Positions 1,769 to 43,144 of a stretch of 43,144 nt of DNA are shown piece by piece. The stretch comes from Reclinomonas americana ATCC 50394 (lineage: Eukaryota), in assembly GCA_048213135.1 (NCBI GenBank), contig PS015059.1:106231-149374 (forward strand), written 5' to 3'. The notes beneath the pieces are model-generated. The model was not told the DNA's origin. It saw nothing but the letters and a program-made list of their open reading frames with translations, and ran no database searches. The stretch's first letter is position 1; each line of letters opens with the position of its first letter. Both the position numbers and the translations under genes were made by a program.

Positions 1769-2353
1769 TCACCTCTCGCCATCCGCAGCCGGCCACCGCC
1801 GCTCAATCGCCCGCACCACCTCGCGCACCATGTCGTCCACCGGAACCTCCAGCACATCCACCGCCACTGCATTCTCCTCCTGCTCATCCGGCTCCTCCAG
1901 CGTCGCAAACTGACTCGCCACCAGTGTCGCCGGCATAAAGTGTCCACGCCGCTCCGTCATGCGCCGCTCAATGAGCTCCCGTGATGCGCGCAGGTACACA
2001 AACCGCAGCAACAGCGACGGACACACATCTGCACCACCACCACCGCCGGTCTGTAGTCGCTGCCGGTACACGCGACGCAGTGCGGAGCAGGCGAGAATGG
2101 TGGTGGTCTTGTGCGCAGCAGCAGCAGAGTCGACAAGTGCATCGTGGAGCGCGTCGAGCCACGGCCACCTGTCGTCGTCTTGGAGGGGGATGCCGGCGGC
2201 CATCTTGGCCTTGTTGGCGGGTGGGTGGAAGTCGTCGGCGTCGAGCATGAGTGCGTCACCATAATGTGCGGCGAGTGCGGTGGCCACGGTGGTCTTGCCG
2301 CATCCGCACACACCCATGATGACGTATGCTGTGTCGGGGGAGGCCGGCTGCAT
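1769..2353 (-). CDS. IDNK: Gluconokinase (GntK/IdnK family), single exon
   Basis: Walker A MGVCGCGKTT, DADDFHPPANKAKMAAGIPLQDDDRWPWL, ILACSALRRVYR and HFMPATLVASQFATLEEP are hallmark gluconokinase motifs. Confidence 0.95.
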   Translation of the reverse strand: MQPASPDTAYVIMGVCGCGKTTVATALAAHYGDALMLDADDFHPPANKAKMAAGIPLQDDDRWPWLDALHDALVDSAAAAHKTTTILACSALRRVYRQRLQTGGGGGADVCPSLLLRFVYLRASRELIERRMTERRGHFMPATLVASQFATLEEPDEQEENAVAVDVLEVPVDDMVREVVRAIERRWPAADGER

Positions 2354-6100: not shown

Positions 6101-9100
6101 GCGCAAACCGAGCGCCGAGGATTTGCAGGCACTGATGAGCAAGGCTGCCAGCGACGAGGATGAGCTTGCCGAGGTTTGTGCATTTGTCAAGAGAAAGAGA
6201 AACTTGTCTCTGTGCGATTGACACGTGATGTCGACGCAGAGTGGCAATTTGGAGGACGACACGGCGGATTTGGAGAATGCTTGGGCGCGCATGAAGGAGA
6301 CATCGGAGACCATGTCGTCCGAGGACGATGACATGGGTGAAGGGTGTGTGTACGCCTTCACGTCCCCTCGTCATCTCCTGTGAATATCCCTTCACCTTTC
6401 ACGTGCGCGCAGTGCATCGGCCGCCTCGTCCTCCGCCAGCAACGGTGGCAGCAGTTTGTACGAGCACGAAGAAGAGTTGCCACGACGCCGGTCGTTTGCC
6501 GCCGCACCCAGTGGCCCCTCCCTCGCCAGCCTGTCCGAATCGGTGCATGTGCTGTCGTTCCGTGCGTTCCCCGAGGGCATTCCGGCCACCCTCTCGGTGT
6601 TTGCGCCGCAGCCGGCAGAGGTTTTCCATTCTTTTTTTGTTCCTGTCCAGACGGCAGTCGCACGCACGCTGACGGTTTGCTGCAGATCCTCGAAGCACTC
6701 TCTTTGCATCCGTACGGATCGTCGTCGTACACGGCCAATGTGGAGTCGGAGGTGCGGCCGGCATTGGAGCGCATGTTTGTGTCATTCCTCTCGATGGTAA
6801 GCGTGTTCGCTACCGTGCGCGCATGTGCTTGTATAGATAAGGATGCTCACATTGCGGTAGTCGGCGGTGGTGTGCACATCCGAGGTGATTTCGGATCTGG
6901 CGCTCTTCTTGGTGCGCTGTGCCAGCCACGAGCTGAACCACGCCGACAAGCTCCTTCGACGCGCGGCCGAGTTCCGTCTCGTGTCATTTCTCGATTTGCT
7001 GTTGAGCGAGGTTGATCGACACTGGGAGGTGCGTCTGGCGCTCGAGATGTCGCGCTGGTTGTCGAGGAGGACTCACCATGCGCACGCACACACGCAGAAC
7101 TCCAAATCCCTCCGTCTGACCGACCTGTACGTTAAGCTGCGTGAGCACGAACCGGCGGTCGGTTACTCGTTCCTGTACTACCTGCTGCGCAAGTACAAGG
7201 CGATTGTGTTGGAGCCCGTGGTGCGCTCGCCGCAGTCGGTCGCATACTGCATCGATGTGTCGTACTCGATTCTGGACGACGAGATCGACGTGGACAAGCT
7301 GGCGCCATACTTTTCCTTTGCCCCCAAGGTCGCAGCGCAGCGTACCGAGGGCCTCTGCCATGATTTGGAGGTGCGTACTGCTCTGTGCGCCATCGGTAGA
7401 TACGTTGTTGACTCAAAGAGTGCGCAGTGCTGTTGTGCCGACGATCTGCAACTGTCGACGGTGCTGGCCAAGTGCATCACCCATCTGGCGGAGGTGCTGG
7501 AGGTGGACCATCACACGGTCCTGTTGTACTCGATCGGGCTGCTGAATCCGCGGCAGATGGATGCGCTGATCACGGATATTGTGGCGCTGCGTTTGATGCC
7601 GTTCTCCAACTTTGAGTTTAAGGATTTTGCCGATATCATAGGTGGGTGCGGGAGGGGGATTAGAAGGGGAAGGGAGGCAGCGAGGAAAGTAGGGAAGTGA
7701 GATAGGGGCAGAGAAATGCGAGCAGTCTCGAAACTCTCGCTGTGCTGCTGACCATGCTTTGTCGCGCCGCAGTACGGAGTGTCGAGCTGGACATGTTTGG
7801 CCAGGAGTGTTTCTGGAAGTGCGTCCACACCTACATGGTCACTGCTGAGGTTCACAAGGAACTGCTGCCGCTGTGGCTGATGGTGGTCGAGCACGCCAAC
7901 TTTGAGTACCGAGGTGAGGCGTGTTGTCATGTTTCACGTCTGGGTTGCGTCACATGCGCACACACGCACACATACAGATCACTCGGTGCTCTACGCCAAT
8001 CTCCTGACCCTCGTCATGCACTCGGAGTTTGCACTGAAGAAGGTGTATGTGGATCGCATGCTGGACGGCTTCCTCCGCCAGTGTGTGCACCTCAACATTC
8101 CGATGGTCGAGGCGGGCGGTGGCGGTCTTACGCAGCCACTGGAGTTTGTCATTGCCCTGCTGTGTCTGTTGATGCAGCCGGGCAGTGCCGCCGGTCGACA
8201 CGTGGTCACCGCGCTCTCGAACGCGCTCGTCGACAAGAAGAACGCCTCCCGCGTACAGTACCTCATCACCATGCTCAAGTACTTGAGAAGGTGGGTGATA
8301 GAAGAAATGGGAGTGGGGTGATTGTGAGTGCCGATCTCCCTTTTGTGATATGCGCAGGCGAGACGACACGGTGTTCCAGGAGGAGAGCATGTCGACAGCA
8401 CTGCAAAAGCTGCAGGTGCGACGGGTGATTGATCAGGAGACGCTGCACTTTTTGTGTCCAGTGGTGGCGGGAGGTGAGTGCGGAGAGGGGCAAGGGGTGG
8501 GGGAATGAGCAAAGAGTGGGTATGAGGAGGGGGTTGAGTGGAGAGGTGGCATAGAAAAGTGGCTTGGCGTAGAATGGAAGGACTCAGCTGCGGAGGTAGC
8601 AAGGGCGTAGAGTTAGACACGAGAGCTGGGAAAGCAAGTGACCTTGCGAAGAACAAGGACATGGCAGTCGTGGCATAGAATGGAAGGACTGAGCTGCCGA
8701 TTACTAGGGAGTAGCAAGTCAGATCGGAAGGTAGAAGGCGAGTGAGCTTGCAAGAGATGCCAGGCGTGGCAACGGAATGGAAGGACTGAACGATTACAAG
8801 GGAGAAAAGAAGTCAGATACGAAGGTAGCAAGGCGCGTGAGACAGGCGTGGCAGCAGTCAATGATTGGAAAGGCGCAGCTGGAAAAATGAGTAAGCTGCC
8901 GATGGATGAGGAGCAACAAACGATGGAGCAGAGTGCAAAGATTGTGCTGGGGCATCGAAGGAGCTGCAATAGTTCGTAGAGTCTGAGTGCCTCTTCACAG
9001 GACGGAAAGGCAAGCGCAACGCGCAAGAGATGGAAGACGAACGTAACGCGTCTGCCGACTCGGATGAAGACGATGGCAACGAATCACCTCCACGAGCAGT

Positions 9101-15352: not shown

Positions 15353-18300
15353 ATGACTGGGGAAGAAGGGATCGAGAATCGTACCGGTCACGTGGCGTTT
15401 GCGCACTCACTCACTCGCTCACTCATTGCGTGCACGCGCGTGTGTGCACAAGGAAAGAGAAGGATGTGAGAGAGAGAGCAACAGCGTTGCACGACAACGA
15501 GCACACGTGAGAGCGTGCGTGCGTGCCATGTTCACACATGCGCATCACACACACAACAACACACACACAGCGAGAGGAGAGACGATTGTCGTGCGCGTGT
15601 ATCACTCAGTGTGCGTGGATGAGCTGTGTGCACAGATAGCGAGAGAGACAGCGATCTGCGAGAAGAGCCTCGTCGCGCTGGACTGACCTTTTGGTGTTAA
15701 GCATCCGTCGGCCGGCGCGGACTGGTGGATTCCACACTTCGACGTCGCAACCCGCACTGCCGCTGTATCGTGTGTGGGAATGCAAGAGTAGTGGAGACGA
15801 GAGTGATCAGACGTGATGGGCACCCGCTCAGCGCTGCAACAGACGCGAAGTTCGAAAAGAAATTATTTTTGCTTTCTCAGCCTCCAGATCCTCAGCTCGA
15901 TCGCGCGGTCAGTGGCCGCAACCGCGCATTGCTAGTGCGGCACAGTTTGCAAGCAGCAGTGTCGACGACGACGCTGCATTTCCATTGTGACGTCGACGTC
16001 CTCCTGAACCTCGCACACAAAACACCCGATACGGTCGCTCCAGAGAGAGCGCACACAGGCCGCCTCGATGGTTCTCGACGACAGTGCGCCGCTGACTGTC
16101 ACCGACTCATCAGCGGCGACTACGCGGCATTTTCATCATCAAAGTCACAGTCATCGCGATGACAGAGCACTTCAATGGCAAGCCTCAAGTGGCTCGGCGG
16201 ACGACGAAAGTGAAGATGAGCGACGCGCGGGAAGCGGGCGCATGAGGAGAAGAGTGACTGCGCAGATGGGCGCGTGGGCGAGGAGCATCCCAGTTGAGCG
16301 CGCGCGTTTCTGTTCTGTCTGTCTTCTCATCTCCGTGGTGGCTTACACGTGTGTACGGTACAGCCCAAGTACTTGCGCACTTTGATTGGCCACATGCAGA
16401 CCGATGAGACTGTGCGAGTTGCGGAGTTGACTCCTGTGTTCCTTCTACGTAATATTCTTTGCACACGCCCCCAACTGACGACACCCTGCTGTGTTTTGTG
16501 CGTAGTGGGCGGAGAAGCCTCCGGTGGCGCGCATCATTCGAGTGCGTTTCTCTTGTGCTGTTACTGTTGCTGCGAGCGTGTGCTCTGACTCGCGTGTGTC
16601 CGTGCAGAGAGATCGTGCCATTCACGGCCTGTTCCTCACGTTTCTCGCGCTCATTTTGGTCACGCTCTCGCCGGTGGACTCCAAAGTCGGCTCATTATGC
16701 TGTGCGTGAGGGCTGCACGCTGGGTCACCGTGCTGCTGTGCAGGCTGATGACTTGTCTTTGTGCAGGTCTGCTGGCCTCGTTCCTGGCGATTATGATGGT
16801 GCTGGCATTTAGGAAAGTCGACGCCTGCTACGTGCTCACCACCAAGCGCGTGCTTGTTGCGTTTTTTTCTGAGAAGGGGAGAGAGTACCGCGCCCAGTGT
16901 GTGCTGAACGGCTGCGTCCAGATTATGACCCCCGCCGGCATCTTCTCCGATGAATCGTGCCTCACCGAAGCCTACGACATGGATCACGTGGCGGCAGCCG
17001 GCGTGCTGCGCTGCGATGGATACCGACCGCAGGTGTACTACACGCGGGAGGCACTGGAGGAGGCCACCACGATGAGTGGCGGCGGCGATTCCTCGTTTGG
17101 GTCGCCGGTGGGTGGGCAGTCCACTGGCGGCGGCCTGCTGTCGTATTTCTCGTCACCGGCACCAATCTCCTCCTCCTCGTCGTCGTCGTCATCAATACCC
17201 CAGTCACAGCCGTCGTTGCCACCATCGTCGTCATCGTCACCACCGCCACCACACGGCGCGGTGCTCACGCGTAGTGCAGTCACGCCCTCGTCGCTGTCGT
17301 CGGCGGCCGAGGTGGTGTCGGCACTGGCCTCGTTGCGCTGGCCCACCACGTGGTTCGAGGATGAGGTTGCGTACCGGTTCGGCGGATCGTGTTTCTTTTA
17401 CGACGGAGAGAATTGGCGAGGTGCGGCTTCATTCATGTGTTTTGCTGTTGACTGTCGGCGATGCCAGTTGTTCATGTTGGCGTGTGTTGAAGGTCTGTTC
17501 CACGTGAGTGATGTGCGGGAGGTGGCCGAGAACATTCGGGCGGCGGCCAACGCCAGCATCATGGAGCATTCGCGGAGTGAGGAGAGATTATATCGCCCTC
17601 CAGAGCAGTCTGCGGCCGTGGCATCAATCATGCCGCTGCAGCGACAGCTGCGCACCGCCATGTCGTTTCACCAGCAGCAACAACAACAACGTCACGAAGC
17701 AGCGTCTGTGAAACCGATGCCGCCCGCACCACTAGTACCCCCGACAATCGACTCAGGAGATGTCGATGCCGAGGGTCGAGGGGGAAAAGCGGCAGCGGCG
17801 CTCGACAGCCAGGCCTCGGCCGGCAGCGAAGGCGACGGTCCCGACATTTTCGAGTTTCTGCGCATGCGTCTGACGGAGCTCGGCAGCATCAAGTGCGTCC
17901 TGCTCTTGGAGGATCCTCGCGTTCGTGTGCACTCACGCCCTCCTCCTCCTCCTCCTCTCGCACAGACCACTCGGCAAGGGCTTCGCCAACTGGCTCGTCC
18001 GCCGTGAGCTCGACAATCTGCGACAACTGGCCAGCCTCTCCTCCTTCCTCGGTCTCTTCCGTTTTGTCGGCGTCGCTCTCGGCGTTGTCACCATCTACAC
18101 GCACGGACTGGGAACGGTGCTGGCCGACCTCAACTTTGTCTTTTTCCTGCTCGGCACGATTGTCTTTGTGTTCCTGCTGTTCCAGATGTTTTACGCGTTC
18201 ACCGTCGAGGCCGGCGAGTCACTACGCAATGGCAAGACGTGGTTTGTGTACTTGCCCACGGGTGAGGAGAGCGATGACGACGGTGACGATGACGACGATG

Positions 18301-18771: not shown

Positions 18772-21700
18772 ATGGACGGAGGAGGCAGTAGTGACGTGGA
18801 CAACGCCGAGATTACGCGTTTCCGCGCCGATAAGGAACGCCTGGAGCGGGAGCTGTTTTCACTGCGGGAATATGAGTTGGCCGCGACGCGCGCCACCAAC
18901 TCGTTGTCTCCGCCCTCTGCGTATCACCACCATCACCACCCATCGCATCATGCGTACCCGGCGCACACGCCACCACAGAGAGAACGCGATCATGCGTTGC
19001 AGCAGTCGGGACGAGGCATTGGCGATGCCATGGATCACCTGCCGACGCGCTTTAGGTACATGCGATGCGGGGGCTGTGTGACGCCAGAGACGCTGCCAAC
19101 ATCGCTCACACATGCTGGTGTGTGTATGTGTGTTACCCACAGTGATACTCGCATTGGTGGCGGTGGTGGTGGTGGTCGTACGCCGACCGGTCCACCGCTG
19201 TCGGCATCGCACTTGGGAAACGGGACGCCGGTCAGCTCGGTGCTGTCCTCGGCGCGGCTGCCGGCGACTGGACGCAGTGCTTCATCGTCGTCGCAGCCGT
19301 CGTCGTCGATGGATCCGCTCGATGCCAAGTACTTGATGAATCCGGGTCTGTTGGAGGCCGAGGTTGCGCGACTCAAGCGGGAGCTGTCGTCGATGGAGCT
19401 GGAGGAGGAGCACATGCGTATGCGACGACAGCATGCGGAGCAGGAGGCGATTGCGTCGCACACGGCCTTGTACCTGCGTCGGCTGTCGGAGGAGGGAGAG
19501 CGCATCGAGGTGCGTTGTTTTTGTGGTTTTCATTCTTGTCGGCACCGTTGTGTTGGACCACACTCACCACGCGCATTCGACGACAGGAGGTTCGCAAGGC
19601 GTTGCGCAGCAAGTCACCGCACCGGCGGCAATTGTCGCCACCGGTGGCCAGCAAGGCGGCGGCGGCGGCGTCGTCGTCGTCGCCTCCGACTTTTAATGGG
19701 ACCGCCACCTCGTTGCGGTACGGAACGCCGGCTTCGGCAATGCCGTCGCAGCAGCCGCCGTCGTCGTCGCGATCACGTCACAGCGCACTGGCCACACCGG
19801 CCTCGGCTGCGGTGGCACCGCGCAGTGCCCCACAGTCGCTGCCGCCCATGTCGCAGGCCTCTCGAGGCAGCAGCGACGTGCTGAATTCACCGCTCAAGAT
19901 TCTTGAGACGGAGGACATGACGCACGATCAGCTGCACGCACACATTGAGGATCTGAAGCGGCAGGCCGCCTTCCTCGCCGAAGACATTGGCGATCTCGAA
20001 CGACGTGAGCAGATTCTCAATCTTGGCCGACCAGAGGTTTGTTTGTGCACTATCTCGCGTGTGGTCTCCTTATCTCGCATTCCACTGAATTCAATTCACA
20101 CAGTTCGAGACCGACGCTCGCTTTGCACTCTACGGTGGTGGTGGTGGTGGTGGTGGCGGTGGTGGTTCGCATGCGCTGTCGCACCTGCCGCCGCCGTCGT
20201 TGGCACCCATGTCCTCGTCATCAGCTCGTTCCATCTCGCCGGCGTCGTTCCGCGAGCATTCTCACTTTGCGAACGAGTATCCCGACGAGTACGATGCCCT
20301 CTCGCCCAGACATCGCTACGACAGTGACGGCTTTAGTGGCAGTGTCAATGGCGACCCGTCGGCGCAGCTCATTGAGCGAATGCGCCGCGAGAAGGTGCGC
20401 ATTGAGCGCGAGCTGCGCGGCCTGTCTCAGAAAGAGGCCTCGCGATGGGATTCGTTTGTGCGACAGCAGTTGCGTGCCCCCACCCCCGTTTTCTCATCGT
20501 CGGAGGCTGACTCGTCGTCGTCGTCGTGGTGTAGGGAGATGCGACGCACTGTGGAATCGCGCATCAGTCAGCGATCGCTGCTGCGTGACATGGATCCCCG
20601 TCGCCGCCGCCGTCGCAGTCGACGCAGTCGTTCTCGTCGCGATGCCAGCTTTGATGATTACGACGACGACGATGATGATGATGACGATGATGAGTACGAT
20701 GAGTACGATGGCGGCCGTGATGCGGACGCTGGCCCGCGACACTACGACAGAGAGACTGCGCTCAGTGGGCTGGTGCAGAATCTGCAGTCGGCCATTGCGG
20801 ATGTGCGCAAGTCTCGTGCTCGGTTGAGTGCCGCCGATTCGGCGCGCGACGCACTCGATTCGGCCGAGCGAGCGGCGTCGGAGCGAGAGCACGGCTCCCT
20901 GCTGCTCAGTCGCGGACCTGACGATCATGGAGGTACGTCATTTTCGCTGTTAATTTATTATGTTGTGTTTCCGATTTGCTGACCTCCTCCGACAGAGAGT
21001 GCGCCGCTGCCGCCCGATGTAGTGCCCGTCGAGGTCTCTGTGCGCATGTTGCCGGGTCATCGTGTGGTGTCACCGTTGCCGCCGCCGTCGCCGGAAGTGC
21101 GTCGCGAGATCGAGCTGGCGCACGAGCAGCACCAGCGCGAGCACGAGCAGCTGATGATTGAGCGCTTGTCCATTGAGCAGCAGGTCCGCCTGCTGCAGCA
21201 GCAAGTTGAGGCCAAGCAGCGCGAGGACCAGTTGGCGGCGGAGGAGGCGCTGCTGCGGGCGCGCCAGGAAGAGGAGGAGGAGGCGTTGCAGAGGGCGGAG
21301 CAGCAGCGGCATGAGGAGGTTGAGCGGCGGCATCGCGAACAGCAAGCGTGGCTGCAGCAGGAACGCGAGCGCGAAGAGCGCCGACAGATCGAGCTGCGCC
21401 GCCAGGCGCTGGAGCACGAGCTGCGAGTGGCCGAGGAGCGTGAGCGTGAGGAGGAGCAACGTCGGGCAGCTGAGGAGCAGCGTCTGAACGAGCGACAAAT
21501 GGAGGCACAGCGACAGGCCGAACAGCAGCGACATGCGGAACAGCAGCGACAGGCCGAGCAGCAGCGACAGGCTGAGCAGCAGCGACAGATCGAGCAGCAG
21601 CGGCAGGCAGAGCTGCAGTTGGCTGCCTTGCAGCAGCAAGTGGAGGAGGCCGAGCGACGGGCAGCCGCCGCCGCCGCCGCCGCCAATGCAGCTGCCGCAG

Positions 21701-24700
21701 CGAATGCCGCTCCCATTACCACTCCGACTTTTGCCGCGCCGCCCGTCGTCCCTCCGTCACCAGCGACTCCGCATCAGCCGCAGCAACCGCAACAACCGCA
21801 GCCGCCTGCACTCTGGGCTCCGTCCGTTCCGATGCCGTCCAGTCTCCCGGCACTGCCACCCCCACAGCAGCAGCCACAGCCGCCAGTGTCCGCTCCAGCA
21901 GCACCTGTGATTCCGGCGGCGCCACCACAGCCGACATTGCCGTCAATGGCGGCGAGCAACGCTGCCGTGGCCATCTCCACTACACCGGTGACAATACCAA
22001 AGTTGCCGACAATGGGTGGTGGTGCGCAGCAGTCTGCACCGATGGTGGTGCCAGTGGCCACGGCCGACGCTTTCTCGCCGCCTGTGGAGGTGACGCAGCC
22101 GAGTGCGCTGGTGACCAACGGCAGCAATCCGAATGGATCGCCGGTGGTGCCGCCACTGGCGCTCGAACGCGTGCACTTCCCGCCGTCGACCGCCGGCCCC
22201 ACCTCAGCGCCGTCGGCCTCACAGCATGCGGTCGCTGGCGGCGGTGCCTCACACAGTGTCAGCGGTCCGCTCACTGGCGCGAGTGCGTCGGGCGTGGTGC
22301 CCGGCGGCAGCAGTGGTGGACCGCTCGGTCGATCTGGGTCGGAGGCCAGTTTGCAGAGTGGTCAGTCGGGCTATGGTCCGCCGCTGAGCGCCGGCGGCTT
22401 TTACAGCAACAGCGGCGGTGCGCCGTCAGCAGTCTCGACAGCCAGTGGGGCGCCTGCACAAGCGCAGCAGATTCCGCCAGCACTGGAGCAGTCGTTTGCC
22501 ACCCACGATGTGCGCCGGTTGGATCCGTCGGTATGTTGTTTATGCAAGATTGATGATAGTGATTGTGTCGAGTCTCACTTTCGTTTGTTGATTGTGTGAC
22601 AGTCGCCCGAGTTCAACGCCGCCATGTCGTCCATTGCGATGATTCAGCGGTATCCAGAGGACGAAGTGCGTCAGCTGGCATTGCAGTACAGGAGCGACAA
22701 TGTTGGCGCTCCGGCAGCAGCAGCACCACCACCACCACCACCAGCAGCGGTTGCGCCGACTTCTGTGTCGGGCATCCATCCGGCGGTGCAGCAGGTGTAC
22801 GAGCACTACAATGCTGGAGCGCTGGAGCCGTCGGGCGAGCAATACGCGTGGGTGGTGAAGACCGCCACCGACAATGTGCACCTGCCGGAGGATGAGGTGC
22901 GACGGCAGTTCCGCGAGATTGCCAAGCGCAACGCCGTGCCGAACGATGCCGTGCGTGCGGAGTTCGACGCGGCCGGTGTGGCACGGCTGCCTGCCAACAG
23001 CATCGAGTACGAGCAGGCGGTGGGCCGGGCTTCCAGCAACGCTCAGGTGCCGGCTCAGGATGTGCGCCAACAGTTTGAGATGCTGCGAGCGATCGATCCA
23101 GCAATGCTGGACCCGCGACTCGCGCAGGCGTATCGCGATCTGTTTGTGGGCCTGATGGACGCGGAGGTGTGTGGCGCGCACTCAGTCGCTTGTTGTCGTT
23201 GTGTGTTTGTCGAGCCCTCACGCGCATTTTGCTCGGTTAGGGTACCGAGTTTGCCGACGTGTGTGAACGAGTGTCGACAGACACGGCGCTGCCTCTGCGG
23301 CAAGTGCAAGACACGTTTGTGCAGTTGCAGCAACAGCAGCGTGCACTGGAGATCAACTTGGCGGTGGTGCAGGCGTTTGAGCAGCACGGCGTGCAGAATG
23401 TCGATGTTGCGTGCGAGTTCCTTCCGTGTTGTGTCCACAATGCAGGCTCTGACAACGTGTCACTCACACAGGCGAGATCACCGGCATTTGCCGCCGCCGT
23501 GTCGGCGGCCACCGAGCAGGCCAACCTGCCGCAGGGTGACGCATTCGATCAGATGGTGGAGCTCAAGTGGCGACGACCACCGGTGACAGGTCCGACGATT
23601 GCCGATTTGCTGAACGAGATCCGTGGCGGCCACATGCTGAAGAAGCTCAGCCGCAACAACAAGTTGGTGGATCGGTTTGTGCGTATCATTGGCACAGACG
23701 AGGCACCGAAGCTGGCCTGGTCGGCCAACAGTCGATCGCGGCCATCGCAGACATGTTGCGTTGTGCGAGGGAATGCTGCTGCTGCGTGCGGGCGATCCTC
23801 ACATTCTCTGATGCGCAGTCGATGTCAAGTCATTCTCTGGTGTGGAGGAGGGCGGGCAGGGCGCCATGTTTAATCGCTTCTTTGGTCGGTCGTCGGTGGG
23901 TGGGCGCACCGATCGTTCGCTCTGCTTCTCCATCATACAAGGCGGCGATCGCGAGACACTGGATTTCGTGGCGCCCGACGCCGAGTCGGTGAGTCCCCTC
24001 ATTCCCGTTTTTCTTGTAATCGGCTTCAACGCGACACAGACTGATGAAAACGTGAATTGCAGCACTCGCACTGGGTGCGTGGTCTGCGCGCCATCATTGA
24101 GGGTCACGGTGCGGAGACTGCGCCCGCTGCTGCCGCCGCGGAACCGGACTTGGAGTCGACGGCGACGCAAATGGGTATCGACACGAGGGACTGGGACGAG
24201 GACAAGCGCACGCAGTTCTCGCAGCTGTCATCAACACAAAAACGCGAGTATGCGGAGCAAATGAGAAAGTTTTACGAGGACCAGCGGGCGTATGAGCAGC
24301 ATGTGGCGGCCTTGCAGGCAGCACCACAGCAGCAGGGTTCACGTCCGAACTCTTACCGCGAGCCGTCGCAGCGCGCAAGCGCACGGTGAGTCTCTTTTGC
24401 TTGCGTGCCCTCGGTGTCTGCCCGCTCACCTCGCTCGCGCACGCAGTGACGATGCGGCGCGTCTGTCCACGGCAAGCCTGCCGCCAATGTCGTTTGGTAG
24501 CACTCCGCGGCAGAACCTGGCGCCTGGCAGCGTGTCGTCAGCAGCGTCGTCTGTCGGTGGCTATCCCCCCGCACCCTTTGCCACCACTCCAATCAGCGGC
24601 GCGGGTGCCGGGTTGACCATGTCGCAGCTGGCACCAGCACCGCTGGCACCACTACCACCACCACAGCAGTCATCGGCATCTGCTGCACCGCCCTCTCTCT

Positions 24701-25166: not shown

Positions 25167-26415
25167 CTACAATGGTGGCATCTCGGGCTCACGGCACACG
25201 CTCATGACGTTCTCGCCACGAATGTACAGCGATCTCCAGAATCGCCGTTCATGCACCACCACGTGACCATTGCGGGTCTTGCGCACCACATCCACGTCTG
25301 GTCGCCGCCGACAGGCAGCCAGCACACGCTGATGAGCCTCGCGTACCGCTCTTCGCCGTGCATCATCGACAGCTAATGGTAGTGGTGGTGGTGGTGGCGG
25401 TGGCGGTGGCGGAGGCGGTGGTGGTGGTGGCTGACTGCTAGCAGCGCCGAGACCCATGGAAAAGAGTGGTGCCGGTTGTAGGCCCTTCTTGGTGACCACC
25501 ACCCACGGTCCCGGCACGCCTTGTTCCGCAAACGGCAGCACACTGACAGCCTCCTCGTCCTCCACCTCCACCTCCCCCTCGCCTCCTTCTTGGGCGGCAT
25601 ATTCCGACGGTCGCACGCACGTGCAGTCTTCACGAACATCGAGCAGGATCTGCGCCGGCATGCAATCGCATAAGGGCGCTGCGAAGAGAGTGAAAAACCC
25701 AAAGCCCCCCCAACGAACCAAGTTCCAGTGGCGATCAAAGGCCTTGATCACACCCGAACAGTGCCCACGCAGGCCACGCAGTCGGCGAATGGCCACCCGC
25801 ACTCGGCACTGATCGATCGCCATTTTCCGCAGCGCCATCAACGGACCCACATCATCGCGTGCACGAAACGCAAACGACGACTCCGCGTCGGCTGCCAACG
25901 CCCTGATGGATTCGAGAGTGACGGGTGGGGCGGCAAAGCGCGCAGAGAAGGCGTCCAGTGAGTCGGGAATGCGATGCTTCTTGGAGCGTTCTCTCGGCGC
26001 TGCGGCCGTCGTCGTTGTCGTCGTCGTTGTGGTCGATGTCGACGGTGGTGGTGGTGGTGGTGGTGGTGGCAAAGGAGGAGGAGGAGGTGGTGGTGGCGGA
26101 GGAGGAGGAGGAGCAGTAGCAACTGGAGGCGGTCGAACAGGTGGCGGAGGGCGATAGTTTGGATCCTCGGGCGGCAACAGTGATCGGCACTTGTCTGCGC
26201 GGTGCGACTGCTCAACTTGTGTGGCTTTCTGACTGTGTGTATGCACACACACACACACCTACATAGTCCAGCGGTCGCGAGTCGGGGTACGGGATCACCA
26301 CACGCTCCGGATGCAGCAAGCACAGCAGTGCGTCGAATGTGGGACTGGTGAGATCGTATCGTAGCTCGTCATCGGGTGGAGGAGGTGGAGGAGAAGGTGG
26401 TCTCTCCTCGGTCAT
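25167..26415 (-). CDS. LSM11: U7 snRNP-specific Sm-like protein LSm11, 3 exons
   Basis: N-terminal DLTSPTFDALLCL..IPYPDSRPLDYV, then GPLMAL..RVRVAIRRLRGLRGHCSGVIKAFDRHWNLILLDVRE (Sm1). A long insert separates this from RSLYIRGENVMSV (Sm2), which is the Lsm11 architecture. Confidence 0.85.
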
Positions 26416-27761: not shown

Positions 27762-28892
27762 ATGGAGGCGTGGGATGATGGCTGGGGCGATGCTGCTGCT
27801 GCTGATGAGGAGCATGATGAGAAGTGGTGGGAGGAGCGGGCCAAGGCCGATGCAGAGGCGTTCCGGGTGAAGAGAGCACGTGCGGCGGCGGTGGCGGCAA
27901 GGTCGGCGGCCTTTGCAAAGATCGCGGCCTCCATGCCCGGGAAGCCGAGTCAGGCAGTGGGTGAGTGGAGGGGGAAGAGGGAGAGGGAAGAGGGAGAGGG
28001 AAGAGGAGAGGGAAGAGGAAAGGGAAGGATGAGAGGNNNNNNNNNNNNNNNNNNNNNNNNNNNNNNNNNNNNNNNNNNNNNNNNNNNNNNNNNNNNNNNN
28101 NNNNNNNNNNNNNNNNNNNNNNNNNNNNNNNNNNNNNNNNNNNNNNNNNNNNNNNNNNNNNNNNNNNNNNNNNNNNNNNNNNNNNNNNNNNNNNNNNNNN
28201 NNNNNNNNNNNNNNNNNNNNNNNNNNNNNNNNNNNNNNNNNNNNNNNNNNNNNNNNNNNNNNNNNNNNNNNNNNNNNNNNNNNNNNNNNNNNNNNNNNNN
28301 NNNNNNNNNNNNNNNNNNNNNNNNNNNNNNNNNNNNNNNNNNNNNNNNNNNNNNNNNNNNNNNNNNNNNNNNNNNNNNNNNNNNNNNNNNNNNNNNNNNN
28401 NNNNNNNNNNNNNNNNNNNNNNNNNNNNNNNNNNNNNNNNNNNNNNNNNNNNNNNNNNNNNNNNNNNNNNNNNNNNNNNNNNNNNNNNNNNNNNNNNNNN
28501 NNNNNNNNNNNNNNNNNNNNNNNNNNNNNNNNNNNNNNNNNNNNNNNNNNNNNNNNNNNNNNNNNNNNNNNNNNNNNNNNNNNNNNNNNNNNNNNNNNNN
28601 NNNNNNNNNNNNNNNNNNNNNNNNNNNNNNNNNNNNNNNNNNNNNNNNNNNNNNNNNNNNNNNNNNNNNNNNNNNNNNNNNNNNNNNNNNNNNNNNNNNN
28701 NNNNNNNNNNNNNNNNNNNNNNNNNNNNNNNNNNNNNNNNNNNNNNNNNNNNNNNNNNNNNNNNNNNNNNNNNNNNNNNNNNNNNNNNNNNNNNNNNNNN
28801 NNNNNNNNNNNNNNNNNNNNNNNNNNNNNNNNNNNNNNNNNNNNNNNNNNNNNNNNNNNNNNNNNNNNNNNNNNNNNNNNNNNNNNNNNNNN

Positions 28893-28964
<72 letters not shown>

Positions 28965-29623: not shown

Positions 29624-29681
<58 letters not shown>

Positions 29682-30268
29682 GTCTCGTCGTCTGTNNNNN
29701 NNNNNNNNNNNNNNNNNNNNNNNNNNNNNNNNNNNNNNNNNNNNNNNNNNNNNNNNNNNNNNNNNNNNNNNNNNNNNNNNNNNNNNNNNNNNNNNNNNNN
29801 NNNNNNNNNNNNNNNNNNNNNNNNNNNNNNNNNNNNNNNNNNNNNNNNNNNNNNNNNNNNNNNNNNNNNNNNNNNNNNNNNNNNNNNNNNNNNNNNNNNN
29901 NNNNNNNNNNNNNNNNNNNNNNNNNNNNNNNNNNNNNNNNNNNNNNNNNNNNNNNNNNNNNNNNNNNNNNNNNNNNNNNNNNNNNNNNNNNNNNNNNNNN
30001 NNNNNNNNNNNNNNNNNNNNNNNNNNNNNNNNNNNNNNNNNNNNNNNNNNNNNNNNNNNNNNNNNNNNNNNNNNNNNNNNNNNNNNNNNNNNNNNNNNNN
30101 NNNNNNNNNNNNNNNNNNNNNNNNNNNNNNNNNNNNNNNNNNNNNNNNNNNNNNNNNNNNNNNNNNNNNNNNNNNNNNNNNNNNNNNNNNNNNNNNNNNN
30201 NNNNNNNNNNNNNNNNNNNNNNNNNNNNNNNNNNNNNNNNNNNNNNNNNNNNNNNNNNNNNNNNNNNN

Positions 30269-30302
<34 letters not shown>

Positions 30303-30317
30303 TCTTCTTCTTCTTCT

Positions 30318-30358
<41 letters not shown>

Positions 30359-35311: not shown

Positions 35312-37786
35312 TCAGGGCGAGCAGATAACGTTGGCCAAGTGCGGGTGGATCTCGACGCGACACGGGGCGACGGGCACATTCTCGCCGTCGAGTGCCATCC
35401 ACGTGCGATGCTCGCCGGGCAGTGGCTCGAGGACCATGGCGCGGATGCGAATGTGTTCCATGCCTGGCTGCGTGTAGCATGTGCCGTCGTCCAGCTGTGG
35501 GAGGTGCGGAAGAGGTCAGAGGGAGAGGTATGGAGGAGGGGAGGAGGAAGGAGCGCGTGGCTCAACGCAACTCCAAAGAGGATCTTGGCCAGTCGGCAGC
35601 GCCCCACTCGTCGGATGAGCATGAGGTGGAGTAGGCCATCGCCGATGCGTGCTGGAGGGCAGATGGTGGCGTTGGCTGCGACGAGAGCGATGTGAGGTAG
35701 GGGTCGGGAGTCGCCAGACGTAGGGGAGGAAAAACTCAACCAGCAAGTTGCGCAATGTTTGTCAGCGTTACCATCATCACCGGCTCATCAATCGTCTTCC
35801 ACGGGAGTGCCGCTGCTTCTCCTGCGAAATGAACCCCACCGATCAATACTAGGAATACGCTCCATGCGCCAACTATGCGCAATGCTCCCCCCAGTACCTT
35901 CTGCGTGCTGCTCGCCATTGGCGGCCAGAGGAGCATGCTCCGAGTGCTCGTCCAGTGTTGGTAGATACCGCAGTCGCGGACCGGCGGGCTGTGCGGCCGC
36001 GCCAGTTTCCAGATCGCCACGCTGCACGGCCACACCCACGCCACTACCACGGCCACCACCATCGCCACCCTGCCACGTCGCGCACCTTCAGCGCACCAAA
36101 TAACGCAATCTCAAACCTGTAACACGCACCTCCAAGTCGTCGGTCACCAGCTCCGCGTACGGTCCATTCAGAACTTCGCCCAACCCTCGCACCGTGGCAT
36201 ACTCGTCCTCCTGTGCCTCGAGGTACCGCAGACGCATCGGATGTCTGCATTGTCGAGATTGGCAACCAAACACACCAGAAGAAGAAACACGAACGCCTCC
36301 TCTCCCAAGCTAACAACTCACACGTGAGCCTTGCATACTTCGCGAAAGCCGCCCCAGTCGAATCGAGCCTTGCCGAGACAGCCGCGCAAGTGATCCGTGC
36401 CCACATCAATGTTGGCCACCAGACCGTAGGTCAGCGACAGGAAGCACACGTAGTGCTCGGCACCCTGCGACACGCTGAACAAGTCCAGCGGCTTGCTGTA
36501 GCCGCGGGCCACTGCCAGCGCGCCCTGCATTGGTTCCATAATGCCGGCGGCTGCCGCCAACGCATTGCCAGACCCGGCAGGAATCGGACCAATACGGACG
36601 GCGCTTGCGCGTTGCCAATCTGGTCGATGGAAAAGCCCGTTGACGACCTCAAACAGGAGACCGTCGCCGCTGACGCACGCCATGCAGTCGACGCTGGCGA
36701 GATCCATGGTGCCAGCGACCTCGCGTGCGTGACCCGCATATTGCGTCTCTGTCGTGTGTGTGTGTGGCGTACACTGTAAGTCGACAAACCCGAGGAAAGC
36801 AGTACCTCTACATCGCACCGATCAACTCGTAGTCGACAAGAGCGCGATCGAGCACCGGCTGCACACACGAGGCCCACAGCTTGGGCGCCGTCTTGGTGCC
36901 ACCAAACGGATTGACAAACACAACAACACGCCGCCGCCGCGGCAGGGGTCCTGCAGGGGAGAATCGGGGTTACCACCACCGCATGCTCGCACACACATAC
37001 ACACACATAGCATGATCGCACCCGCACGGAACCTTCCACTGGCAATCCCGCAATCAAACACTGCACCGCTGTCACCCATCGCATCGCCTCATCGGCACTC
37101 TCACACGAAAACGACTCGTCGCTCAACTGACGTGTGGTGCCACCACCACTACGTTCGCAGAATGAGTGGGAAAAATGACAGGCCTCACACCATCAAAAAA
37201 AGTACACTCACCAGCACCCGGTCGCCACCTGCTCGACCGCCGACACCACGAATCGCCGATCGTTGTCGTCGCTGATCGAGGCACCCACCAGCCACTCCGC
37301 ATCAAAACCCGATCCACCACCCGCTGCAAATAATGCAATCGACACATCAATCACACACACGAACACGCGCATTGAGCAAGGGAGAGAGTGTGCGTGTGTG
37401 TCTGCCATACCAAACTCAGGCTCCGTCTCCGCGGCGCGCAGGTAGATACCCGAGGGCGACACCACATTCACCGGCGCACCAGCGTGTGCATCACTATCAC
37501 CAGCAGCAGCGCTGCTGCTGCTGCAACAGCATGCACAACAGCATCGGCACGAGCCTCGACGTTGCTCGGCGGTCCACGAGAAGCCAGCGCGAGTCAGACG
37601 GCCGAGCACGGCCTCGTCGCCACGTGCAGTGTGGCGCACCAGCACCGACTGCATTATGGTGCTGTGCGAGGGTGAGGCAGGTGGTGGCACTGCTGCTGCG
37701 CCATCGAGATCTGCTGCGCGGCTGCTGCTTCCGTAGTCGGTGTTGATGCCGCCGTATGTGGTGGAGGGTGCACCGCCGGCGCTCAT
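35312..37786 (-). CDS. SPHK: Sphingosine kinase / long-chain base kinase (DAG kinase family) with N-terminal PH-like domain
   Basis: TQYAGHAREV, VSGDGLLFEVVNG, IPAGSGNALA, PLDL, SLTYGLVANIDVGTDHLRGCLGKARFDWG, DGLLHLMLI and MALDGENVP. The last exon ends LANVICSP*. Confidence 0.92.
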
Positions 37787-37960
37787 GAGTGGGACGTGAT
37801 GTTGTGTGATGAAAGTGGTTTTGGTTCATCCGTTCATCAGCAATGAAGGCCTCGAGGGTCGCAAACGCACTGCTGCCGCAGGTGCTTCTTATTCATTCAT
37901 GGACAGCAGTGCGGTGTGCACGTGATCGCGGGCAGCGAGGTGTCGATGTTCTTCAATCGC
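37170..37960. repeat. Direct repeat copy 1: SphK upstream region, exons 1-2 and start of intron 2
   Basis: Core 37236-37848 is nearly identical to 42135-42747; the ends are more diverged. Confidence 0.95.
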
Positions 37961-37985
37961 CAGGCACATACGGACTATGCTACAC

Positions 37986-38069
37986 NNNNNNNNNNNNNNN
38001 NNNNNNNNNNNNNNNNNNNNNNNNNNNNNNNNNNNNNNNNNNNNNNNNNNNNNNNNNNNNNNNNNNNNN
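37986..38069. other. Assembly gap
   Basis: Run of N. Confidence 1.
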
Positions 38070-38547
38070 TACCGTGGATAGAGATGTTTTGCTCGTTTCG
38101 GTGACGCGATGCACTGACTATCCCTGTGTGTTGATCGCGGAAGCTGGACTGCAGTTTCACGGTGTATGTCATCAGCCTCCGCAGCCGCCTGCCGAATTGT
38201 GTGCTGGAGACTGTTCTAGTTTCCAACCGCACTGTCCACCCTTTCCGAATTTACCGTACCCACCGGGCTCGTTGGCGTGCCGGACGGCTACAGCATCACC
38301 AGCGGTGGCGCAGGAATAGCCGTCACTTACAGAACCGCTGCCGACAGTGGTGCAGAACTCCATACTCTACTGGGCACGTTCACCCTCGAAGCCGTACAAC
38401 GCGGTTACTAACCGTGATCTGTACGACTTCTCCAAGGTGAAGCTGGCATCGTACGCCGTTGGACTGCGAATTCAGGTGACGATCTGAGTGATGGAATTCG
38501 AAGTAATTCGTGTCACTTGACCATCGTCATCAATAACCGTTGGTCTT

Positions 38548-41500
38548 TCAATCGTCGGCTGGCTCGAGACACACGCCAGTGGCGTCGACTGTGCTGGACA
38601 ACGCGACAGCAGCACCGGCGTCGCGGTCAGACAGATCGAATACGACGCGCGACTCCAGCTCGCGCATGTGGGAATCATCGTCAAGGCCGCATCCAGTAAG
38701 CACACTGGCACAGCGCCTAGCAAAGTCGGCAAAGTCGACAAAGCCGGCCGCTCCACGTTGATCTCGGATCGCCATGGCAGCTTCACTGGCTCGACGGTTG
38801 CTCAGTGTGTCGCCAGAGACAGTGATTAGCAGGGATGCCAGAATTGTCGGATGGCACGAATTCACGCCGACGTAATCTGCGAATGATATCCAAGATGTAA
38901 CCACGCGGCAGAAAAGCACGTTGCACAACCAGCTGCTGTTGTTGCCACACTCACCGAGTTGCTGCAGTACTAGCCGCGTCAGTAGCGGACCAAAGAAGCC
39001 TTGAGAGGCGTAGTCAATGACAACGGCATTCGGCAGCAGGGCAGCCAGTTCGCGGTCGTTCATCACAGTCGGTACGCGTTGACTGCACACAATGACCGGA
39101 ACGAATACGACATCGACAGCAGCATCTGTATCAGCGCGGCGGCGTCGCGTCCACAGCTCTTGCAGTGCAGTCTGCCAATAAACTGCGCCGTGAGCGAGCG
39201 GAGCGGGCACACATAGCTCATATGGCATACTGCGCACCGTGAAGAGCAGTGTCGTCAGCAGCTTCTTCTCGTTGGCAGTGTGCTGTGCTTTCGCTTGCAC
39301 CACCAAGCACACTCGTTGGCACGGGCGGTCAGGCAAGAGGTCCAACACAACAAAGCAATCCACGCCGACATGGCCGGCCGTGGCCATCCACACATTCCTC
39401 TTGAGCGACGGACGTTCCAACTGTTGCTCGTAAATATGATGCTGTGTGTCAGTGCGCAACAAACACACAAGAGTGTTGTAGTTGGAACTAACTACAACAA
39501 ACCTCCGTACAGAAGCACTATCGCCAGCGGTGATCAAAGAGACGTGAGTAAATGTATCAATCAGGGCAAAGAGAACCAACACTGCACACTCTCACCTCTT
39601 GCAACTGCAACTCGGCTGGACGGCGCAATGTATCGAGCTCTATCGCACGAGCGTCAACAATGGCAGAGAGCCGATCGCTCTCCAACTCTGCCGTCGTGGG
39701 AGCGAACACGTGTCCTCGGAGACGCGGTTTCATGTGCACGTCGGTGATGTTGACAGCAGCATTGTCCAAACGGTAACGCGCCAGAACCTCGTCAAGCGAG
39801 TCGCCGCCACGCATCTGCTCAGTGAGACCACTGAGGACATTGCGGAGAAGAGGCGGCTCCACCGCTGCTGGCCCAGTTGCACCTTGGCGCACGCTAGTGT
39901 GTCGATGTACCAGCAACACCAGTCGGAATAGGTGCGCCACAGCAAACTCAAAGTCTTCACCCTGCCGCGGTTTCAGAAAGGCAACACATGCACAACACAC
40001 CTGGCTACGGTCTCACTCACCGTGCTGGTGGCTGCAGCATTCATGGAAAACGCAGAACTGGCGATACTGCTCAGCGCAGTATTCACCTGACTGCACACCG
40101 GCTTGTCGGCCATGTCTGGACAGAAAAACAGCGGTACGCGCAGGCGACTAAGGGACGGCCTGAACCGATCGGGATCTCGGAGAAGAAAACCCTGACTTTC
40201 CAACGTGACGAATCGTGCGTCAAGATTAGAGACTTGCACGCCGCGAAGCGCGAGGACTACATCATTGTCTGTCAGCAGATGGCAGTTGCGCATGGCCGTG
40301 CCGGCCAGAATATCCAACCATCGCACTACAAATACAGTGAGATGCACGGAAACCCCCACACATAGCCAAGCCTCTACGATCGTACCTGCGCCAGCGGCAT
40401 CAGATGCGTTCGCAACGCCGGCAACACCGTTCAACAGGTACACCAGTGAGCGCGGATGCCAGCCAACGAGGCGGAGACACGCCAGAATAGGAGCACACAT
40501 GCGCCAGCCGGAGACAAAATCCGCCAATTGTTCACGGCATTGACGACACACACAACCTACAGTGATGACGGACATGCACAGTCAGCACATGAACAAGAGG
40601 CAGTGGAAGAGGGAAGGACTGTCCACGCACAGGAACGTGACGCCACAATGTCCGGCTGAACACGAGCGTGCTGCATGTTCGCATGTTCGGGCACACCAGT
40701 CCGCAGTCGATCAGGAAGCTCCTCGAGAATGCGCTGCACGGCCTCGTACCGCAAGGGTGGAACTGGTACCAAGATAGGTGCCACGCCCGTTGCATAGCAG
40801 AGCCCATCGTGCATGGTCGGATCGTCCTCCAGTGTGCCACTGAGCGTCACCGCCAATCGACAGGCGCTTCCTAGAGCGAGCTCGAGCACGGTCCCGCTCA
40901 AAACGTGGTACATCTCACGCAACACTCGACGTGCCAGCTCGATGCCACCAGGTTGCACATGGTCTTCTCTGACGAGAAGTTTTTGCACCTCGTCGATGGA
41001 GAGCACGACAACAAAACTGCAGAGGAGGCATCATGATTAGCCACGTCTAGTGCCTGTCATCTGCTTTCAATTGCTCTCTCTCGCCAAGCACACACACACA
41101 CTTCTGCCCGCACCAAGTACACGAACCGTTTGTCTGTGGCAACGTTGTGTCGCCTTCGATGACACTCAACGATGTATTTCAACGCCGCTCGCAAGGAGCA
41201 CCTTGGTAGCTGATCGGGACGCCGGCAACCGCGACGGCGCTGATTCATCAGGAAGGCAAAGTACTCCGTGATGGGCATATCGGCGCAAAAGTACGCTCGG
41301 AGGACTCGCCACGCCAGGGAGTTCTCACAGCGCTTGTTAATCGTGTCCGTGTAATCCACACCGTCGAGTGTCCTCAGCCGTTCAATCTCTTGGACACCGT
41401 CGCCGTGGTTGTACTTGATGTACAAGTGCAGAAAGGCAAACATAGCGCCACAGTCGCCAAGTGATTCTGATGAACGAGTGAGAGACAAAAACACAGAACA

Positions 41501-41906
41501 TTGCGCTGTCGGAGTGCACACCTCGCAGCAAACTCGTCGTGCGCAGTGCAAGCGACGTCTTCCCAGCACCGGCTACCCCCAAAATGAACGGGACGCAGAT
41601 TTGTTGCTTGCTGTTGAGTGACGATGCCTGGACCACAGAGAAGACTGCCCCCAGCAATTTTCTTGTGGCCTCTTTCTGCCGCTGGTACGGGATGTACACA
41701 CTCAGATCGCGCAATCCCCAGTAGGACAGCGTCTCCTGTGTTGTGATGGGTCTGTTATCCTCAGTGGTGATGTGACAACAAAAGATGGTCAGTTGACTTG
41801 CCTCGCTCAGAGCTGAAAACGTGGGCCGTGAGCCTCCAGCCGGCAACAAGTTGAGAATGTACCGCGTGTCATCGTCCACTGAAGGCGCAGAATTCGCACA
41901 GCCCAT
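38548..41906 (-). CDS. Crinkler/RHS-type effector-like protein: N-terminal lipidation motif, P-loop NTPase, PD-(D/E)xK-type (QxK) nuclease and C-terminal HhH; about 9 exons
   Basis: MGCANS start; Walker A GVAGAGKT (~41556-41579); Walker B FVVVLSIDEVQ; VTLSGT; GWHPRSL; GEDFEFAVAHL; GHVGVDCF..CLVVQAK; NAVVIDY..FFGPLL; VGVNSCHPTILASL..AMAIRDQRGAAGFVDFADF. The exons join in frame through GT-AG introns. Confidence 0.8.
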
Positions 41907-42079
41907 GGTGAGCTCCCGCGGCGTATGTAAGGTGCGAGTCTTGCGGGACTCTCGCTTGAGAAGGACGAAAGCAAGAACAGAAGTTGTGTGACGACGCGAC
42001 GTTTCTCAAGTAACGAGGCGCATGGAAGCACGAATGCATAACAACGAAGAAGCCAGCGCTCAGGCCTAGGGACGGCGAG

Positions 42080-42857
42080 AAAAAATGAAAAGACAGGTCT
42101 CATCATCATAACGCACACACTCACCAGCACCTCGACCGCCGGCACCACGAATCGCCGATCGTTGTCGTCGCTGATCGAGGCACCCACCAGCCACTCCGCA
42201 TCAAAACCCGATCCACCACCCGCTGCAAATAATGCAATCGACACATCAATCACACACACGAACACGCGCATTGAGCAAGGGAGAGAGTGTGCGTGTGTGT
42301 CTGCCATACCAAACACAGGCTCCGTCTCCGCGGCGCGCAGGTAGATACCCGAGGGCGGCACCACATTCACCGGCGCACCAGCGTGCGCATCACTATCACC
42401 AGCAGCAGCGCTGCTGCTGCTGCAACAGCATGCACAACAGCATCGGCACGAGCCTCGACGCTGCTCGGCGGTCCACGAGAAGCCAGCGCGAGTCAGACGG
42501 CCGAGCACGGCCTCGTCGCCACGTGCAGTGTGGCGCACCAGCACCGACTGCATTATGGTGCTGTGCGAGGGTGAGGCAGGTGGTGGCACTGCTGCTGCGC
42601 CATCGAGATCTGCAGCGCGGCTGCTGCTTCCGTAGTCGGTGTTGATGCCGCCGTATGCGGTGGAGGGTGCACCGCCGGCGCTCATGAGTGGGACGTGATG
42701 TTTTGTGATGAAAGTGGTTTTGGTTCATCCGTTCATCAGCAATGAAAGGTTGCAAAGGCACTGCTGCCGCAGGTGCTTCTTATTCAATCATGGACAGAGA
42801 CAGTTGTGCGGCGTGCAGGTGATCGCGGGCAGCGAGGTGTGGAGGTTCTTTGATCGC
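42080..42857. repeat. Direct repeat copy 2 of the SphK 5' region
   Basis: Matches 37170-37960. Confidence 0.95.
42126..42685 (-). pseudogene. Truncated duplicate of sphingosine kinase exons 1-2 with a 14-nt frameshifting deletion
   Basis: Same MSAGGAPST.. start as 37786. It lacks CAGGTGGCGACCGG near the end of exon 2, and no kinase exons follow. Confidence 0.75.
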
Positions 42858-43111
42858 AAATATATCGATGCACGCATTCGCGCTGCGATCGCGAACACGC
42901 AGCGCTGCTGCGCGTGCTGCGTGCTCGGAGTTGCTTCGCCTCCTGGTAAGCTCGAGTACTGCTTTCGTAGTCGCTGTAGCTGGTACGCTGGTCCTGAACT
43001 CAGGCATGCGGGTGCACATTGGCAGAGCTCTCGCTGCCACAAGCGTTCGTCCGCGCAGCGCACGCTGCATTCTGCATGCATGCAGCGCTGGTTTCACTCT
43101 TCGGCTTCTCT

Positions 43112-43144
<33 letters not shown>

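Follow-up and report, generated by a model that had tools for sequence, protein, structure and literature searches.

The stretch of 43,144 nucleotides of Reclinomonas americana ATCC 50394 that was analysed here, hereafter the window (assembly GCA_048213135.1, contig PS015059.1, positions 106,231 to 149,374), carries on its minus strand, at positions 41906-38548, an eight-exon gene whose product displays the motifs of a P-loop nucleoside triphosphatase (NTPase). In our view, this protein is probably a nucleotide-dependent switch that is likely to be tethered to a membrane and whose C-terminal half has no assignable family. In such a protein, the ~550 residues located behind the NTPase would be controlled by it in a nucleotide-dependent manner. 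The original prediction, made from the sequence of the same region, went further and described a Crinkler/RHS-like effector in which an NTPase, a helical region resembling a helix-turn-helix (HTH), a nuclease of restriction-endonuclease (REase) fold and a ComEA-like helix-hairpin-helix (HhH) follow each other.

The gene model comprises eight exons, seven introns and a single open frame of 2796 nt, corresponding to 931 codons and a stop. Its ATG at 41906, the first one past an in-frame stop, is found in a Kozak-like context (CACC-ATG-G), and its stop codon lies at 38550-38548, so that the model stops and starts precisely at the limits proposed originally, 38548-41906. All seven introns (55, 83, 74, 60, 59, 154 and 78 nt) begin with GT and end with AG. 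The donor of intron 2 is ambiguous (41099 or 41126, the latter giving an alternative exon end at 41127), the two versions differing by 9 residues, and introns 4 and 7 might be retained, as neither intron 4 (40326-40385, 60 nt) nor intron 7 (78 nt) shifts the frame or contains a stop codon. Exon 1 (41522..41906, aa 1-128), an open reading frame (ORF), carries the start codon, the MGCANS N-terminus and the helix and strand that precede the Walker A motif. It is followed by exon 2 (41100..41466, aa 129-250), which has no family match and forms the insert separating Walker A from Walker B, then by exon 3 (40631..41016, aa 251-379), which includes Walker B, the SGT strand and the subsequent helices. 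Exons 4 (40386..40556, aa 380-436, no family match), 5 (40021..40325, aa 437-538) and 6 (39596..39961, aa 539-660, beginning with GEDFEFAVA) encode the middle of the protein, whereas exon 7 (38955..39441, aa 661-822) encodes an alpha/beta region and exon 8 (38548..38876, aa 823-931 and stop) an HhH-like stretch and an acidic tail. All these exons are on the minus strand. Every motif reported in the original prediction is found in this spliced model, in the order that had been claimed.

The base composition of the exons is that of coding sequence. Indeed, the G+C content at the three codon positions is 0.649, 0.453 and 0.622 over the whole coding sequence, compared with 0.504 overall for the introns, and the second position is the lowest in G+C in each of the eight exons of the model. 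The same holds for five of the six reference ORFs of the window, which include those related to Ints3_N, DAGK_cat, gluconokinases and LSm proteins, the ORF at 16700-17300 being the exception. Taken with the shuffle statistics of the motifs described below, this G+C pattern indicates that the gene is more than a product of chance. The splicing that had been proposed is thus borne out by splice sites and coding statistics, and on these grounds the locus can be regarded as a genuine protein-coding gene of eight exons.

The N-terminal half displays both motifs expected of a P-loop NTPase. A Walker A motif of the form G-x4-GK[ST] follows directly a hydrophobic strand (CVPFIL-GVAGAGKT, aa 104-117; GVAGAGKT itself at aa 110-117, 41556..41579, minus strand). 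A Walker B motif of the form hhhhD[DE], VVVLSIDEVQ (aa 253-262, 40983..41012, minus strand; D259, E260), lies 149 residues downstream of Walker A, a distance compatible with a domain, and is followed by an SGT strand at aa 310-312. It is the sole site of the model in which at least five of six residues ahead of D[DE] are hydrophobic. When the protein was shuffled 20,000 times, 79 shuffles gave the hydrophobic strand with Walker A, and 8 gave both of these together with a Walker B located 60-220 residues further on. The P-loop NTPase identity, and with it this part of the original prediction, is therefore sound at the level of motifs. Weaker signals fall on the same region: PADLOC gives two sub-threshold matches on the P-loop of exon 1 (residues 83-122, E 0.0085; residues 106-123, E 0.053), and a feature search of the Atlas with exon 3 gives BrxC/BrxD, ORC-CDC6-like and Cdc6 lid clusters with values of 0.81-0.85, which are below 0.9 and count as leads only. 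Like the AAA+/ORC-Cdc6-like and BrxC/BrxD ATPases, the protein thus has a Walker A, a hhhhDE-type Walker B and then an SGT strand; unlike them, it has no Pfam match, and its Walker A and Walker B are separated by a 120-residue insert. The prediction of a complex of exon 1 (residues 60-128), exon 2 and exon 3, given as separate chains together with ATP, scored 0.23 for a mark of 0.34 and carries no weight either way.

The beginning of the protein suggests where such a switch could act. Its first residues, MGCANSA (41886-41906, minus strand), fit the N-myristoylation pattern G-{EDRKHPFYW}-x2-[STAGCN]-{P}, and the Cys at position 3 is a possible palmitoylation site. In dually acylated proteins, an MGC-type start predicts a membrane tether. 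N-myristoylation of Gly2 and palmitoylation of Cys3 would provide this tether here, and the role of a nuclear DNA nuclease sits awkwardly with such a location. This acylation-type start is new relative to the original prediction, as are the copies of a ~750-bp repeat found on either side of the gene (see below).

Several points weigh against the proposal of a membrane-tethered nucleotide switch. We infer the joining of the exons from the sequence, and acylation is so far a pattern match only. Furthermore, nothing significant was obtained with Pfam, PADLOC or NCBIfam on any exon piece, including the one that carries Walker A; these profile scans ran on single exon pieces, and the NTPase domain is spread over three exons and two frames. 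Finally, when an AAA_16 mini-profile built from 6 bacterial proteins was run on 501 sequences, the model and 500 shuffles of it, the model did not rank among the top 12, although this profile is too insensitive for its result to weigh against an NTPase.

The protein appears to be a sequence orphan that is restricted to its lineage. An exhaustive phmmer search with its last 297 residues (exon 7, intron 7 and exon 8 in read-through) found no relative at E <= 0.001 among 1,835,955,588 representatives. The exhaustive search covered these C-terminal 297 residues and NTPase exons 1 and 3 were searched by a word-based method; word-based searches among longer proteins retained none of 2301 candidates for exon 7 at E <= 0.001, none of 1874 for exon 3 at E <= 0.01 and none of 834 for exon 1 at E <= 10. 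Scans of metagenome and viral contigs gave 465 and 4 pattern matches, respectively, for exon 3 and 106 and 8 for exon 7, none of which was confirmed. Sequence searches of the PDB gave no match for the C-terminus or for exon 3, the four RPB2 rows obtained with exon 1 (E 0.44-0.46) being irrelevant. Among the family scans, NMB0315_dom_I on exon 6 was considered as noise (Pfam, E 0.029, 15.2 bits for a cut-off of 27), as were the sub-threshold alaDH, PRK11899, CSLREA_Nterm and AlaDh_PNT_C. As no relatives were found, the protein is not a known housekeeping orthologue, an identity that would have spoken against the original prediction; for the same reason, membership of the Crinkler/RHS group cannot be shown.

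The nuclease proposed originally would reside in exon 7. There, G-V-D688 (GVD, aa 686-688) is followed by hydrophobic residues and, 21 residues further, other hydrophobic residues precede Q709-A-K711 (QAK, aa 709-711), the pair being located at 39289-39375 on the minus strand. If the pair is defined, as we did, as D with hydrophobic residues and hhh[EQD]xK located 8-30 residues later, the 931-residue protein contains one such site. Pairs of this type occur in 18.3% of 5,000 shuffles of the protein and at 0.11 per 931 residues in real bacterial ORFs (6 of 182 ORFs). Therefore, one is expected by chance in about one protein per 5-10 of such length, and the pair found here, although suggestive of a nuclease, is far from diagnostic of it. 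Of the catalytic residues claimed to be apparently intact, D688, Q709 and K711 are present, with Gln standing where the (D/E)xK triad has its acidic residue, as in the Mrr-type QxK variant. With Pfam at E <= 10, exon 7 matches AlaDh_PNT_C only (E 0.11) and no nuclease family, and in the Atlas it reaches a recognition score of 1612 (mark 2300) with unnamed clusters only and no nuclease lead. Structure predictions made without alignment have a predicted local distance difference test (pLDDT) score of 37.2 for the exon 7-exon 8 read-through and of 51.0 for exon 7 alone, with a predicted template modelling score (pTM) of 0.48 for the latter. Both low-confidence models show several strands, then two helices and one further strand, an arrangement that would be compatible with the alpha-beta-beta-beta-alpha-beta core of a nuclease and proves nothing. 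Neither had a Foldseek match at E <= 0.001; glycerol-3-phosphate dehydrogenase, AnmK and similar entries, all at E > 0.1, were taken as meaningless. The restriction-endonuclease-like alpha/beta module of exon 7 is nevertheless the leading candidate for an output domain, a tentative one against which the chances run about two to one in our estimate.

The other parts of the proposed effector fare no better. GWHPRSL (aa 411-417, exon 4, 40444-40464, minus strand) is a motif that the original prediction read as GxP-like, by resemblance only. The proposed first helix of the nuclease, FEFAVA (aa 542-547, exon 6), precedes the D strand by ~140 residues. At aa 826-875 (38719-38868, minus strand), the HhH-like stretch is helical, as is the ComEA-type HHH_3, and its hydrophobic and small residues are spaced in a loosely comparable way; unlike HHH_3, it has no readable G-hydrophobic-G hairpin, no Pfam match and a pLDDT below 40, the values for exon 8 in the read-through model being 24-39. 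As exon 8 gives no Pfam family at E <= 10 either, the claim of a ComEA-like HhH could not be upheld.

The NTPase gene is bracketed by two near-identical copies of a ~750-bp direct repeat, ~4.9 kb apart, which show a handful of mismatches when aligned over their best-conserved stretch. On the downstream side of the gene, copy 1 (37214..37985) is part of a DAGK_cat (sphingosine-kinase-like) gene and ends at an assembly gap (37986-38069). On the upstream side, copy 2 (42113..42860) repeats the DAGK_cat gene from its promoter-proximal region into its first exons; this copy looks truncated and is out of frame with the NTPase gene. A fusion of these duplicated exons to the NTPase gene was tried and rejected, the phase-0 donor after the third exon leading to a stop or to a wrong frame at each acceptor tried. 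The repeat may reflect a recent local duplication, a haplotype collapse or an artefact of scaffolding or assembly.

That the protein is a nucleotide-gated DNA nuclease of Crinkler/RHS type (NTPase, HTH, REase fold and HhH), whether it works as an effector in conflict, immunity or cell death or persists as a relic of a domesticated mobile element, seems unlikely to us. The NTPase, the helical middle and the C-terminal alpha/beta region with D...QxK do follow each other in the order found in Crinkler/RHS proteins, which are also eukaryotic; in the part of PMC5289972 that summarises Zhang et al. 2016, most Phytophthora Crinkler C-termini are NTPase + HTH + REase. The likeness to these C-termini is nevertheless one of motif order only, as no profile or homologue backs any of the three parts, and other traits separate the present protein from Crinkler/RHS effectors: no ubiquitin-like header or secretion signal was detected (Pfam gives no family for exon 1 at E <= 10) and the acylation-type MGC start is found instead, there is no Pfam match, and the gene has seven introns and is present as a single copy in the window, among ordinary genes. 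Compared with PD-(D/E)xK nucleases, such as the nuclease domain of Can2/VC1899 (PDB 1XMX) as presented in the relevant part of PMC7969007, it has Gln for the acidic residue of the triad, no profile match, no confident fold and a proposed first helix displaced far upstream. The uniqueness of the D688/Q709-x-K711 site within the protein, the rarity of such pairs among the 182 bacterial ORFs and the position of D688, Q709 and K711 on successive strands, then helices, in low-confidence AlphaFold models all speak for a nuclease. They are opposed by the frequency of the pair among shuffles, the lack of any nuclease or HhH family on exons 7 and 8 (Pfam, E <= 10), the Atlas score of exon 7, the low pLDDT of the models (37 and 51), the missing hairpin, and a start that indicates the membrane rather than the nucleus. 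Moreover, no inverted or direct repeats were found inside 38071-42200, which gives no support to a transposon bounded by terminal repeats, and the 43-kb window holds no paralogue of the NTPase gene. The claim of a REase-fold nuclease has thus found no profile match, homologue or confident fold to rely on. More ambitiously, the protein could be the founder of an orphan eukaryotic family of NTPase-gated PD-(D/E)xK nucleases, a myristoyl- and palmitoyl-anchored, Crinkler/RHS-like conflict or cell-death effector encoded by an intron-bearing host gene that was placed or moved by the recent local duplication of the 5' end of its neighbour; we regard this combination as quite unlikely.

It is improbable that the locus does not work at all, being a decaying or never-expressed frame, or an artefact of mis-assembly where a scaffold gap adjoins a duplicated segment. 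The failure of every search to find relatives, the repeat around the gene with a gap adjoining one of its copies, and the long open frames seen on non-coding strands of the window would all agree with such a view. However, 931 codons remain open over eight exons separated by seven canonical, short and phase-compatible introns, all eight exons have the G+C pattern of coding sequence, the NTPase motifs are intact, and the gene lies with the upstream repeat copy on an uninterrupted stretch (38070-43144). Slightly more improbable still would be a STAND-type (Avs/NLR-like) signalling ATPase, whose C-terminal half would sense a ligand instead of acting as an enzyme. Its layout, with an N-terminal module, an NTPase, a helical region with a G-x-P-like motif and a long C-terminal region, is also that of the present protein, which may resemble STAND proteins in its motifs and acylated plant NLRs in its start. 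Against this stand the absence of any Pfam match to NACHT, NB-ARC, AAA_16, TPR, WD40 or LRR on the exon pieces, the negative, if insensitive, AAA_16 mini-profile and the lack of a visible repeat architecture in the C-terminal half. With no profile match on the exon pieces and no homologues, neither of the kinships suggested originally, Crinkler/RHS or STAND/Avs, was established. The nucleotide-dependent switch with a C-terminal half of no assignable family is thus the reading that we retain.

On present evidence, the protein is another lineage-specific P-loop protein, of modest interest. If the nuclease proved true, it would be a membrane-tethered, nucleotide-gated nuclease encoded by a free-standing eukaryotic gene without detectable relatives; Crinkler/RHS-type modules would then reach beyond secreted effectors, and the protein would be a candidate for innate immunity in protists. 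The case also calls for caution more generally, as a nuclease cannot be established from a short D...QxK pair combined with HhH-like spacing.

The window as a whole has ~58% G+C, three assembly gaps and no Rfam match. The genes around the NTPase gene are ordinary ones, related to Ints3_N, gluconokinases, LSm proteins and DAGK_cat. Long dinucleotide microsatellites border the two large gaps (28037-28892 and 29696-30268), namely (GT)33 at 28893-28958, (TC)26 at 29627-29678 and (TC)15-18 at 30269-30356, plus a long A run, and the region at 28-31 kb is without a convincing gene. A 538-residue frame at 20983-22599 (plus strand) has a highly repetitive, coiled-coil-like block of Gln, Arg, Glu and Ala and, after it, a Pro/Ala/Ser-rich tail; across the repeat, the opposite strand is likewise open. 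In the ORF at 25167-26258 (minus strand), poly-Pro runs are long and the C-terminal end matches the LSM domain weakly (E 0.0027, below the cut-off). The single-exon gluconokinase-like ORF at 1772-2353 (minus strand), possibly just a conserved enzyme, is 39-54% identical to proteobacterial, verrucomicrobial and actinobacterial loci (tblastn, best 80 of 195 confirmed matches). Finally, a multi-exon gene at 3443-8428 (plus strand) matches Integrator complex subunit 3, with Ints3_N found on two ORFs (E 5.5e-10 and 9.5e-18) and long poly-Ala, poly-Pro and poly-Gln stretches.

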